Shown one piece after another: positions 5,624-19,378 of a stretch of 38,155 nucleotides of DNA. The position numbers were made by a program, and so were the translations under genes. Each line of letters starts with the position of its first letter. The first letter of the stretch is position 1. The notes beneath the pieces were generated by a model. The model ran no database searches and was not told where the DNA came from. It was given only the letters and a program-made list of their open reading frames with translations. Location of the stretch: the IMG/VR virus record IMGVR_UViG_3300042334_000410, positions 1-38,155 of that record, one strand, 5' to 3'. Source of the DNA: a virus (Duplodnaviria; Caudoviricetes).

Positions 5624-6303
5624 CACGAAACTGTGCGCAGTTGTTCCGCCGATTCGCCGCCGCAATGCAAACCTAAACACCGCCACTATTTAATTGGCTT
5701 AGTGCTTTTTATTGCCATCTCTGTCACGCTCTAAATAACGCGTTAATAACCACGTCGGCTTTATCTGATAGGCTGTCCTCATAACTAAATAGACTTCCAG
5801 AAAAACTCGTCCACGCGTACGCGTACAAGTTGAGTAAGTTACGTCACCGTAAATTGATAAATAAATAAGTACCAAAATTAGAGTAACCAAACCGCCCTGC
5901 AATTAATCCTTCGGGACAGTACGCGCGTCTGACCAAATAATTTTGGCATTTAATTCATAGAGAAGGCAAGAATTTGTGGCGCAGTTGTCAGTAGCGCGCC
6001 GCAATTCAATATGTAGCCAGCAAAACTACCAAAGTCCAAACCAGCCAGCACAACGTTACGCAGTACCAGTTAATGGCAGTTGTAACGAATTAGGCAATAG
6101 TTTGGTAATCGCCACGTGACCGAATCGGCGGCGATGTAACACTTTTGGCAAGTTTGTGACCCGCCGTAAAGTTGTAACGGATATCGGACGCGATGACGCA
6201 GAAATGCAGAGCGTGTGACACCGATAGGAAAGTTATTTGATAGCGGCGAAGGACCCAATGGCGAACCAGCCTTAGAACAAACTGACTATGGACAGCAATA
6301 ACT

Positions 6304-6376
6304 TCCGAAATCGCGCCGTCACTAAAAGGCGGCGCGATATAACTATTTGGCGAATAGTTACTGATGAGGACAGCCA
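6304..6376 (+). ncRNA. Hammerhead ribozyme, type II (HH1)
   Basis: UCC-GAAA(6307-10); stem III 6310-20/6328-38; cleavage triplet AUA 6337-39; stem I 6340-47/6353-60; core CUGAUGA 6361-67; stem II GGA 6368-70; loop I UGGC can pair with GCCA 6373-76. Confidence 0.9.
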
Positions 6377-6403
6377 ATCAACTACAAACAAAGGACAGGC
6401 AAA

Positions 6404-6667
6404 ATGGCAATGAGCAAAAAAGACTTCAATCTAATGGCAATTCAATTTGGACAGCAGATGAAGCACATCAACGCAATGGACTATCACCAGCCAATTCGTG
6501 AGATAGCAATGGCAACATTACTTGATTCAATCAAGGCATATTGTTATGTAGCATTTACAGCAAACGGCAATTTTGATTCATCACGTTTTTATGATTTTGT
6601 TGATGAAATCGCAGATGGTCGCCGTGATTCAAGTGGCAAGTTAGTTAAGAAAAGTAAGGCGGCTTAA
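6404..6667 (+). CDS. Hypothetical early protein
   Basis: AAGGACAG RBS motif; 'MSKKDFNLMA...NGNFDSSRF' is a pattern seen in small phage early proteins. Confidence 0.8.
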   Translation: MAMSKKDFNLMAIQFGQQMKHINAMDYHQPIREIAMATLLDSIKAYCYVAFTANGNFDSSRFYDFVDEIADGRRDSSGKLVKKSKAA

Positions 6668-6669
6668 CA

Positions 6670-6810
6670 ATGTATAACGCAGAAGATTTTGACGGCGATT
6701 ATGAAATGGCAATACAAGTAAGCCGCGTAGTAGCGGACAGAACCAAAGGCGAATCAGATTGTTACTGTTCTAATAACACAGTATGCCGTCCGTGTAGCCG
6801 TAATTACTAA
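6670..6810 (+). CDS. Small Cys-rich hypothetical protein (46 aa, not in ORF track)
   Basis: MYNAEDFDGDYEMAIQVSRVVADRTKGESDCYCSNNTVCRPCSRNY; fills the gap; CxC...CxxC. Confidence 0.65.
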   Translation: MYNAEDFDGDYEMAIQVSRVVADRTKGESDCYCSNNTVCRPCSRNY

Positions 6811-6839
6811 ACCAACCAACTAGAAAAGGACAGAAACAA

Positions 6840-7256
6840 ATGGCACTAAATTGGAATATAACAAAATGCAACAATATGGAAGCACTTCAATCAGACACAG
6901 AATGGCCTGTAACTAATGCCGTTATTTGGTCCACTTTGGCTGTAGAGATTGGCGACCTCACAGAAAAAACTGTTAATGAGTTCTACGCAAGAGTTAAATT
7001 GTGGGAAACTGTTAATGGCGCACTTACATATACAAAAGATGGCGCAGATTATTTCATTACGTTAGAAGATTTACGCAAACGTATTGGACTATCAACCAAT
7101 GTAAGCAACTTGCCACGTAACAAATGGCTAAAGCGCATTGAAAGAATCATCGCCGAAAATCAATGGAAAACAACACCGCAATTATCACTCAATGAAATCA
7201 ATGCAATTATCTTCCAAGCACACGTAGAGGCAGAAAAGGAGACAGCAAATGCCTAA
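6840..7256 (+). CDS. Hypothetical early protein
   Basis: AAGGACAG RBS motif; 138-aa ORF. Confidence 0.8.
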   Translation: MALNWNITKCNNMEALQSDTEWPVTNAVIWSTLAVEIGDLTEKTVNEFYARVKLWETVNGALTYTKDGADYFITLEDLRKRIGLSTNVSNLPRNKWLKRIERIIAENQWKTTPQLSLNEINAIIFQAHVEAEKETANA

Positions 7257-7455
7257 GTATCCAAATATCACAGTAACAATGGACTTAGATGGTCCAGATG
7301 GCAACGCGTTCGCAATTATGGGCGCAGTTCAAAAAGCACTACGTAACGCTGGCGCTACTAAAGAAGAACTGGCGCAATACTCAATGGATTCAATGAGTGG
7401 CGATTATGATAACTTAATCGCGGCTCAATCTAAGTGGGTGGCTTTCAATGTCTGA
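7249..7455 (+). CDS. Conserved phage hypothetical protein
   Basis: AAGGAGACAG RBS; 'LDGPDGNAFAIMG...SGDYDNL' is a recurring small phage protein motif. Confidence 0.8.
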   Translation: MPKYPNITVTMDLDGPDGNAFAIMGAVQKALRNAGATKEELAQYSMDSMSGDYDNLIAAQSKWVAFNV

Positions 7456-7588
7456 CACCAAACCAGCACGTAGCGGCACAATTAAGTGTGGTATGTGTGG
7501 CAAATCTGTTGTAATCGGGAAGTGGATAAAGTTGGCTTTTTGTCCTGATTCCAAATGCACTAATAGTGAAGAACGTTATTTGGACTAA
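7448..7588 (+). CDS. Small Zn-ribbon protein (46 aa, not in ORF track)
   Basis: MSDTKPARSGTIKCGMCGKSVVIGKWIKLAFCPDSKCTNSEERYLD; CxxC...CxxxxC; overlaps the upstream stop. Confidence 0.65.
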   Translation: MSDTKPARSGTIKCGMCGKSVVIGKWIKLAFCPDSKCTNSEERYLD

Positions 7589-7677
7589 GCCGAAACGTGC
7601 CAAATGTGTGCAATTGTTTAAGCAACGCACATATTTGGCACGTCTAGTGGTAAATGCCACTACTGACGAGGCTCGTC
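7583..7677 (+). ncRNA. Hammerhead ribozyme, type II (HH2)
   Basis: AGCC-GAAA(7592-95); 17-bp stem III 7595-7611/7627-43; GUC 7642-44; stem I UAGUGG 7645-50/CCACUA 7657-62; core CUGACGA 7663-69; stem II GGCU 7670-73, extendable by GAC 7583-85/GUC 7675-77. Confidence 0.92.
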
Positions 7678-7704
7678 AATGTAAACCAAACAAAGGACAG
7701 AAAA

Positions 7705-8205
7705 ATGACAGAAGCAACAACAACCGAATCAACACCAACAATGCAAGCAACTATGGAACGATTTGTAATGGATAACGATTTGGCAACCGTTATTGAAAGG
7801 CTGGTCAAGCAAGAAGAACGTTTTATTGAACTGGCGCAAGCAAAAGATTCAATCTATACACGCCTTCAAGATGAACGCGCCACAAGCCGTATCAATCGTG
7901 ACACAGTTCGCAACAAGTTCCGTGAAATGTTAGATGGCGATAAAAACGCCACTATTGAAATGGACTTGAGCGACATTAATGAATTACTAGAAGATATTGG
8001 CGCAAGCAGAATTATCTTTACTTATTCTGTTGATGTAACAGTTACAGCCACAATTACCGGAATTGAGGCAGATAGTGAGGAAGATGCACGTGAAAAGGCA
8101 ATTCAAGCACTAGAACTCCGCGTAGATACAGATTCACTTGGCGAGGACGCCAATTGTGAAGATGAAGAATATGACGCCGACAATGCACAGGAAGAGGACA
8201 ACTAA
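7705..8205 (+). CDS. Hypothetical acidic protein
   Basis: Start reassigned to ATG 7705 behind AAAGGACAG; 'IEADSEEDAREKA' motif. Confidence 0.8.
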   Translation: MTEATTTESTPTMQATMERFVMDNDLATVIERLVKQEERFIELAQAKDSIYTRLQDERATSRINRDTVRNKFREMLDGDKNATIEMDLSDINELLEDIGASRIIFTYSVDVTVTATITGIEADSEEDAREKAIQALELRVDTDSLGEDANCEDEEYDADNAQEEDN

Positions 8206-9497: not shown

Positions 9498-9515
9498 CCA
9501 GCCAAACTAACCGAT

Positions 9516-9576
9516 TAGGCGCGTTGGCGCTTTTCTAGTGACACAAAGACACACAGAAAAGTGGCTAACGCGCCTA
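9516..9576 (+). other. Long imperfect intergenic hairpin (processing site or terminator)
   Basis: TAGGCGCGTTGGC/GCTAACGCGCCTA plus GCTTTTCT/AGAAAAGT stems. Confidence 0.65.
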
Positions 9577-9605
9577 TGACGTTCCTATGACGTATCAAGT
9601 AGAAT
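9576..9605 (+). promoter_or_regulatory. Putative sigma70-type promoter overlapped by a direct repeat
   Basis: ATGACG (9576-81)...TAGAAT (9600-05); CCTATGACGT x2 at 9573 and 9584. Confidence 0.4.
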
Positions 9606-18735: not shown

Positions 18736-18899
18736 TGAAATACATAACGGCGTTACTTGGCGCGGTCTTTGCTGTACTTGCCGTTGCTTGGTTTGTAATG
18801 TTATTGGCAGGCGCTATCTATCCTGTCAGTTATAAGCAATCGTTGCATACGTTGTCCATTCTTTATATCGTAACGGCGTTACTACGAAAGGCAGACTAA
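18735..18899 (+). CDS. Small membrane protein (54 aa, not in ORF track)
   Basis: TAATG overlaps at both ends; MKYITALLGAVFAVLAVAWFVMLLAGAIYPVSYKQSLHTLSILYIVTALLRKAD. Confidence 0.7.
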   Translation: MKYITALLGAVFAVLAVAWFVMLLAGAIYPVSYKQSLHTLSILYIVTALLRKAD

Positions 18900-19378
18900 T
18901 GGCAAAAAGAAGCAAACTTAATCCTGAAACATTGGAGAAAGAAGCCAAAGTTCTTGAAATGAGGCGCGGCGGTTTCACTTTTGACTTGATTGCTACACGG
19001 CTTGGCTACGCGAGCGCCAGCGGCGCGTACAAGGCTTATCAGACGGCTTGCAATCGCATTGTCTATGCAGAAGTGGCAGAAACACGTAACGTTGAAATGG
19101 ATAGGCTAGATATTGCGCAAGCGGCAATATGGGGCGACATTATTAACGGCGCAACTCCCGAAGATAGAGCGCGTGGCGTACAGGCGTTAGTACGCATTAT
19201 GGAAAGGCGAGCCAAACTCCTTGGCTTAGATATGCCAACAAAGGCGCAGATAGAGGTAACTCATTATGACAGTTCAACAATTGACGCCGAAGTCGCAAGA
19301 CTTGTCGCTCTCCTTGATAGCGAGCCGCCACGTGCGTTGGGCACATCAACTGGCAAGAACGGAACAATTACCAACTAA
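18899..19378 (+). CDS. terS: Terminase small subunit
   Basis: HTH 'LEMRRGGFTFDLIATRLGY', 'IMERRAKLLGLD.P'; directly upstream of terL. Confidence 0.8.
   Translation: MAKRSKLNPETLEKEAKVLEMRRGGFTFDLIATRLGYASASGAYKAYQTACNRIVYAEVAETRNVEMDRLDIAQAAIWGDIINGATPEDRARGVQALVRIMERRAKLLGLDMPTKAQIEVTHYDSSTIDAEVARLVALLDSEPPRALGTSTGKNGTITN

Follow-up and report, generated by a model that had tools for sequence, protein, structure and literature searches.

What does a self-cleaving ribozyme do at the head of the early genes of a phage? The role of bacterial and phage hammerheads has been open since 2011, and at the locus described here a concrete job can be predicted: with a single cut, the ribozyme would finish a large RNA at its 3' end and set the 5' end at which the first early mRNA begins. 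The window, i.e. the whole stretch of DNA that was analysed, is a virus record of 38,155 nt with a completeness of 99%, and all annotated genes of this tailed phage lie on the plus strand. Endolysin and HNH genes are followed by the hammerhead, hereafter HH1, and then by small unknown genes, DUF932, a RecT-like protein, an exonuclease and a replication initiator. The first-pass annotation had placed HH1 in the leader of the first early gene, a reasonable placement from this gene order, from which we infer it as well.

The transglycosylase matches were dominated by phages of Streptomyces, Gordonia, Mycobacterium and Corynebacterium, the best two endolysin matches were Actinomyces phages and the terminase matched actinophages for the most part, not exclusively, so that the host is probably an actinobacterium. 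The DUF932 relatives found in cellular genomes gave no indication of the host, all of them falling below 40% identity. The ORF that immediately precedes the large terminase (18899-19378) matched PHROG 645, labelled 'Rnase E' (E 4e-27), but had no Pfam match, and the label is doubtful. A long imperfect hairpin (9509-9583) immediately 3' of the DUF932 gene is possibly a processing site or a terminator.

HH1 carries the core CUGANGA, GAAA and NUH in type II order, and every element claimed for it by the first-pass annotation, as well as the 64 nt between the predicted cut and ATG 6404, was borne out on the sequence (Table 1). The loop I/3'-tail pseudoknot can grow to 5 bp (UUGGC 6347-51/GCCAA 6373-77) if the eighth pair of stem I is given up. 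ViennaRNA, a program that does not handle the pseudoknot, gave the 3-bp stem II a probability close to zero. A type II descriptor matched the window exactly twice, at HH1 and at 7588-7673, where a second hammerhead lies, and 100 random windows with the same dinucleotide make-up, searched on both strands, gave no match of this strength and two loose ones. Rfam scans of the whole window (0 hits at the gathering cut-off) and of 4 kb did not pick up HH1. On a 101-nt stretch, HH1 scored 28.4 bits (E 2e-4) against RF02276 (Hammerhead_II), below the gathering score of 37, and four of its homologues, in a scan of 18 loci, stood above that score (44, 41.8, 38.9 and 37.3 bits).

Table 1. Features of the HH1 locus and of the second hammerhead, in coordinates of the window.
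Feature	Position	Strand	Basis or remark
Extended -10 promoter motif TGnTAnnnT (TG-A-TAGGCT)	5766-5774	+	predicted start near 5781
Large structured RNA, ORF-free, ~559 nt; predicted 5' cleavage product	5781-6339	+	without Rfam match
RNA core domain, nested long-range helices	5963-6273	+	RNAalifold, covariation
Core helices	5963-67/6269-73; 6016-19/6259-62; 6020-24/6153-57; 6029-35/6141-48	+	
Further core helices	6036-39/6102-05; 6044-46/6093-95; 6109-11/6132-34	+	
Kink-turn-like element ACGC-GAU-GA...GA-GCGU with GAAA tetraloop cap	6188-6214	+	pattern match
HH1, type II hammerhead with loop I/3'-tail pseudoknot	6304-6377	+	predicted cut 6339/6340
HH1 UCC	6304-06	+	sequence
HH1 GAAA	6307-10	+	sequence
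HH1 stem III, 11 bp	6310-20/6328-38	+	sequence
HH1 loop III with closing pair, CACUAAAAG	6320-6328	+	would stay on the 5' product
HH1 triplet AUA	6337-39	+	sequence
HH1 stem I, 8 bp	6340-47/6353-60	+	sequence
HH1 core CUGAUGA	6361-67	+	sequence
HH1 GGA	6368-70	+	sequence
HH1 pseudoknot UGGC/GCCA	6348-51/6373-76	+	sequence
Shine-Dalgarno-like AAAGGA of first downstream gene	6390-6395	+	sequence
First downstream gene, 87 aa, without family	6404-6667	+	no PHROG match, no Pfam match at cut-off
HH2, second type II hammerhead, tail complementary to its own core	7588-7678	+	descriptor, folding

The comparative evidence came from 80 viral loci retrieved with the DUF932 protein, 36 at 66% identity or more and 44 distant. 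Type II hammerheads, one to three per locus, occurred in 35 of the 36 close loci and in 2 of the 44 distant ones, counts that overstate independence because the loci belong to one phage clade and many are near-identical strains. Pattern scans gave mostly chance matches, with a true HH1 in 41 of 239 loci. Thirty-one of the 34 distinct HH1-type sequences were aligned; L004, which nearly duplicates another sequence, the truncated L116 and L144, which matched the pattern falsely, were set aside. Apart from N7 the core was invariant in this alignment, the rows of which had been selected by the core pattern. Stems I and III, closed as hairpins, showed compensatory changes at 14 of 18 pairs across the 31 homologues, and 97.6% of their cells were paired, compared with 23-51% in slid controls. 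The open stem II measured 2-5 bp in all 32 distinct HH1s, 2 bp being the minimum set by the scan itself. The pseudoknot reached at least 4 bp in 29 of these 32 sequences and at least 3 bp in all of them, and its partners change jointly (UGGC/GCCA, AGGC/GCCU, UGGA/UCCA, GCC/GGC). The triplet AUA, instead of GUC, was present in 2 of the 32, and an extra U between the core CUGAUGA and stem II was observed as a core-adjacent variant in 13 homologues (e.g. L005:3037-3110). HH1 passed this comparison of core conservation and stem covariation in related phages, which backs the ribozyme identity, the pseudoknot, the predicted cut site and the 64-nt leader; at the level of sequence, HH1 is a real type II hammerhead motif of a known class.

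The constant partner of this motif is not the gene that it precedes. The first downstream gene is freely exchanged among relatives, where 33 distinct first downstream proteins fell into 13 blastp clusters. Among the 36 DUF932-selected loci (L001-L036), the large RNA upstream of HH1 was present in 32, with a hammerhead within 200 nt of the RNA end in 32/32; two of the remaining four loci (L007, L008) are cut off by contig ends and two (L031, L032) have a first hammerhead without a profile match to the RNA. Loop III read CA(C/A)UAAAAG in 30 of the 32 RNA-adjacent hammerheads of this set and was retained in two loci in which the hammerhead has no UGGC pseudoknot (L332 and L351); in other hammerheads, the loop of stem III is freely variable. 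As far as sequence comparison goes, HH1 is thus tied to the upstream structured RNA rather than to the downstream gene. The association is not a strict interdependence, since L031 and L032 are exceptions on one side and L444 and L453, which have the RNA core without an adjoining hammerhead, on the other. In these last two loci, two hairpins end the RNA in the hammerhead's place, the last loop (CUAAAUG) being partly like loop III of HH1. The RNA-terminal hairpins of L444 were tried as a hammerhead and did not fit, and a type II hammerhead lies about 540 nt downstream of the RNA in the same locus.

The transcript that contains this RNA is predicted to start at an extended -10 promoter. Its motif TGnTAnnnT was found at the matching place in 24/24 rows of the two closest subgroups and in 72 of 1634 control windows, and the promoter rows use 8 different hexamers in which only TA...T is kept. 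A looser motif occurred in 26 of 31 loci, the five loci without it all coming from divergent subgroups. A generic sigma-70 promoter scan gave 2 promoters compared with 2.3 expected. The distance from the predicted start to the cut is 556-658 nt in relatives. No plus-strand ORF of at least 50 aa starts in 5781-6339, and the ORF-free leader is conserved in blocks among relatives. Most leaders contain one to four copies of a motif A(C/A/U)UAAAU (5784-5792 and 5857-5866 in the window) that resembles loop III and may be a repeated, putative protein-binding site.

The RNA was searched for in relatives by profile HMMs, and its core was aligned from 24 sequences of the two closest subgroups, divergent members being excluded because of poor alignment. 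RNAalifold returned 29 nested pairs from these rows, 12 of them with compensatory changes. The 31 named core pairs were 93.8% paired, with 14 compensated, and 31-42% paired when slid; the outermost helix was weaker (70% paired). On a tree, the named pairs showed 16 same-branch compensatory events, where 2000 null draws gave 0.39 on average and never more than 5, an excess that is inflated because the pairs were picked from the same alignment. Over the whole leader, 12 helices, one of which is stem III, had at least two compensated pairs, whereas 12 controls with permuted columns had 0-3. With 15 such helices on the reverse strand, no fewer than the 12 of the plus strand, the helix count does not fix the strand, which was called from the promoter and the ribozyme, from a G-U pair that is invariant and from the tetraloops, GNRA/UUCG-type loops being found on the plus strand of the RNA. 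The kink-turn-like pattern was present in 17 of the 24 loci tested and missing from all three loci of the L005/L016/L036 subgroup; its assignment at 6188-6214 follows the K-turn consensus. In its nested pairs, the upstream RNA thus shows a large multi-junction structure with covariation, and from these alignments the ORF-free stretch is likely a structured RNA, probably non-coding and a candidate for a new class. On the minus strand of L443, upstream of the match to the pattern, a peripheral loop of the RNA contains a reading frame that has a ribosome-binding site of its own, so that the region can also serve as a message.

Database searches returned no known counterpart of the upstream RNA. 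There was no Rfam match at E values up to 1-10 in the window and its relatives, scans of the leader and of divergent relatives gave only chance-level hits, and the Rfam covariance models of ROOL and GOLLD did not match. RNase P, T-box, cobalamin riboswitch and group I/II introns were considered as its identity and were dropped for lack of an Rfam match. A blastn search of 5740-6420 against 50,697 phage records gave no match, and one exact pattern of the RNA core, which does not fit the window's own subgroup, had 0 matches in genome contigs.

The most likely reading of these data, to which we assign a probability of roughly 0.55, is that the HH1 cut would mature the 3' end of the large RNA and release it, while giving the mRNA a standard end. 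The host RNA polymerase would start near 5781 and the RNA would fold; the 3' tail GCCA(A) would dock on loop I and steady the weak stem II, and a cut after A6339 within the same transcript, likely the first early one, would free an RNA of about 560 nt from the message. Each of the two new ends would carry a hairpin, as stems I and III are both closed in the type II topology. Stem III, with its invariant loop, would form the terminus of the freed RNA, which would bear a 2',3'-cyclic phosphate; on the other side of the cut, a flush hairpin with a 5'-OH would head the mRNA and its 64-nt leader. The job under selection would be the maturation of the RNA 3' end together with its uncoupling from the exchangeable small early genes, and a standard, protected mRNA end would be a second benefit of the cut. 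The predicted unpaired fraction of 6390-6397 rose from 0.47 in the precursor to 0.72 in the 3' product, a weak difference from a model without pseudoknots.

Ranked second, and in our view rather unlikely, is the explanation that HH1 serves the mRNA only, as a natural RiboJ-like insulator with a hairpin-capped 5'-OH, the upstream RNA acting in cis before the cut or being discarded. HH2 and the third hammerheads fit this explanation, as they stand before the Shine-Dalgarno sequences of further early genes and have no large RNA ahead of them, and so does the distance from cut to ATG, mostly 54-69 nt in relatives. RiboJ itself raises mRNA about twofold, possibly via its terminal hairpin, according to the available part of PMC6206723. 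However, an insulator for the mRNA leaves unexplained why loop III, a part of the upstream product, is invariant, and it accounts for neither the 32/32 adjacency nor the 550-650 nt of covarying structure. Moreover, the protection against RNase J that the first-pass annotation had ascribed to a 5'-OH is weakened by the available text of PMC11780869, according to which RNase J1 is not blocked by a 5'-OH alone and degrades the 5'-OH product of the glmS ribozyme, and 5'-OH ends in B. subtilis are trimmed to monophosphates. By analogy, any protection of the mRNA would more likely stem from the flush 5' hairpin than from the 5'-OH. The stabilisation of the mRNA by HH1 is plausible but incomplete, as it ignores the upstream RNA, and is probably half the story.

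An improbable alternative is that the large RNA acts in cis as a sensor that gates HH1 via loop III, so that cleavage and early expression would respond to a ligand or a protein. The marginal stem II and the invariant loop III would suit such a switch, as would the K-turn-like and internal-loop motifs present in the RNA, which are typical of riboswitch folds; however, no complement of loop III was found at a constant place within the RNA, the RNA persists without an adjoining hammerhead in L444 and L453, and the downstream genes are mutually unrelated.

The second hammerhead differs from HH1 in its tail. HH2-type hammerheads (homologues e.g. L002:5129-5220, L020:4281-4350) have no pseudoknot, and their tail is complementary to the core (CUGAUGA...UCAUCAG or CUGACGA...UCGUCAG). 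A tail/core complement of at least 6 bp occurred in 26 of the 38 non-HH1 hammerheads and in 0 of the 32 HH1s, and in 24 of 28 pattern hits the variable base of the core can pair with the tail base opposite it (20 U-A, 4 C-G). For HH2 the tail/core hairpin has a predicted energy of -40.6 kcal/mol, compared with -38.3 kcal/mol for the active fold; on this folding model, the hairpin may control when cleavage occurs or keep the product from being re-ligated. The listed ORF 7654-8205 begins inside loop I of HH2, and its start is more likely the in-frame ATG 7705, behind AAAGGA.

With two hammerheads in place, HH1 and HH2 might excise the block 6340-7644 with 5'-OH and cyclic-phosphate ends for circularisation, which we consider very improbable. 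The small early genes are indeed flanked by two or three hammerheads in most relatives, and ends of this kind are those joined by RtcB-type ligases; on the other hand, the HH2 tail competes with its own core, no back-joint was found in two RNA runs of low cover, and spliced or circular products were undetected from such clusters according to the available part of Perreault et al. (PMC3088659). The same two runs showed 5-6% of shared words and contained, at 85% likeness, 6 and 21 contig pieces from relatives, contigs that carry no RNA-end information. One RNA-run contig spans the cut site (6121-6460), which indicates that uncut molecules, RNA or DNA, exist there, and counts against the release of the RNA by HH1. 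This contig, like the position of the region at the late/early boundary, would agree with a conservation at the DNA level, as origin or operator palindromes, with HH1 not cutting in vivo. Such a conservation is the least probable of all the explanations weighed here, as the catalytic core is invariant, the pseudoknot covaries, the long-range helices keep an invariant G-U pair and the GNRA/UUCG-type loops stand on the plus strand.

If HH1 releases the RNA, as we consider most likely, the function of the freed molecule is a matter of graded guesses. Our preferred one, tentative and somewhat short of even odds, is by analogy a protein-binding or self-assembling scaffold or decoy, as ROOL and GOLLD; a putative polymerase-bound antitermination RNA, for a genome that is read on one strand, comes next and is doubtful. 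We give about an even chance to the broader proposal that the RNA belongs to a new class of large ornate phage RNAs with a built-in maturation ribozyme, first made on infection, freed by HH1 and functional as scaffold, decoy or antiterminator, stem III doubling as a terminal recognition hairpin. Because its predicted ends are precisely defined, this candidate for a new class of large structured RNAs can be transcribed, probed and imaged without phage culture.

A search of the open-access literature gave no description of such an RNA or of a hammerhead that ends such an RNA. According to the available parts of PMC10690425, an IMG/VR survey, its motifs measure 29-151 nt, sizes at which fragments of the upstream RNA could be among them; no motif match was found in three of its supplementary files. 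HH1 itself adds one more member to a known kind of ribozyme, since the type II architecture and the clusters around short prophage genes, active in vitro and in vivo, were already described by Perreault et al. in 2011, in the part of PMC3088659 available to us. HH1 shares with the hammerheads of that study and of RF02276 the topology, the core, the short stem II, the pseudoknot and the clustering before short phage genes, and the Rfam consensus of RF02276 itself shows UGG...GCCA. It differs from them in having AUA instead of GUC and a long stem III with an invariant loop, and its fixed place where a large structured RNA ends is not described in the available text of PMC3088659.

The upstream RNA resembles ROOL and GOLLD in being phage-encoded, about 600 nt long, multi-junction and of unknown function, the average length of ROOL being 581 nt (PMC5737381, PMC12286853, as far as available). 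Unlike them, it fails their models, heads the early region and ends in a ribozyme, and the neighbourhood of tRNA genes that is frequent for ROOL and GOLLD is absent here, a scan of the window having returned 0 tRNA genes. Theta ribozymes of gut phages, which are HDV-like, have been proposed to mature tRNA 3' ends (PMC10879173, available part), and are likewise small self-cleaving ribozymes placed for the 3' end of a phage non-coding RNA; HH1 belongs to another ribozyme class, and its partner is an uncatalogued large RNA instead of a tRNA. RiboJ, in the accessible part of PMC6206723, is similar in that, by cutting itself, it gives the mRNA a standard 5' end with a hairpin cap ahead of the ribosome-binding site, but it is engineered and its upstream product is waste, whereas the upstream product of HH1 is conserved and structured. 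Judged against these systems, the locus would present a known ribozyme class in a new, role-defining context, beside a candidate new large RNA.
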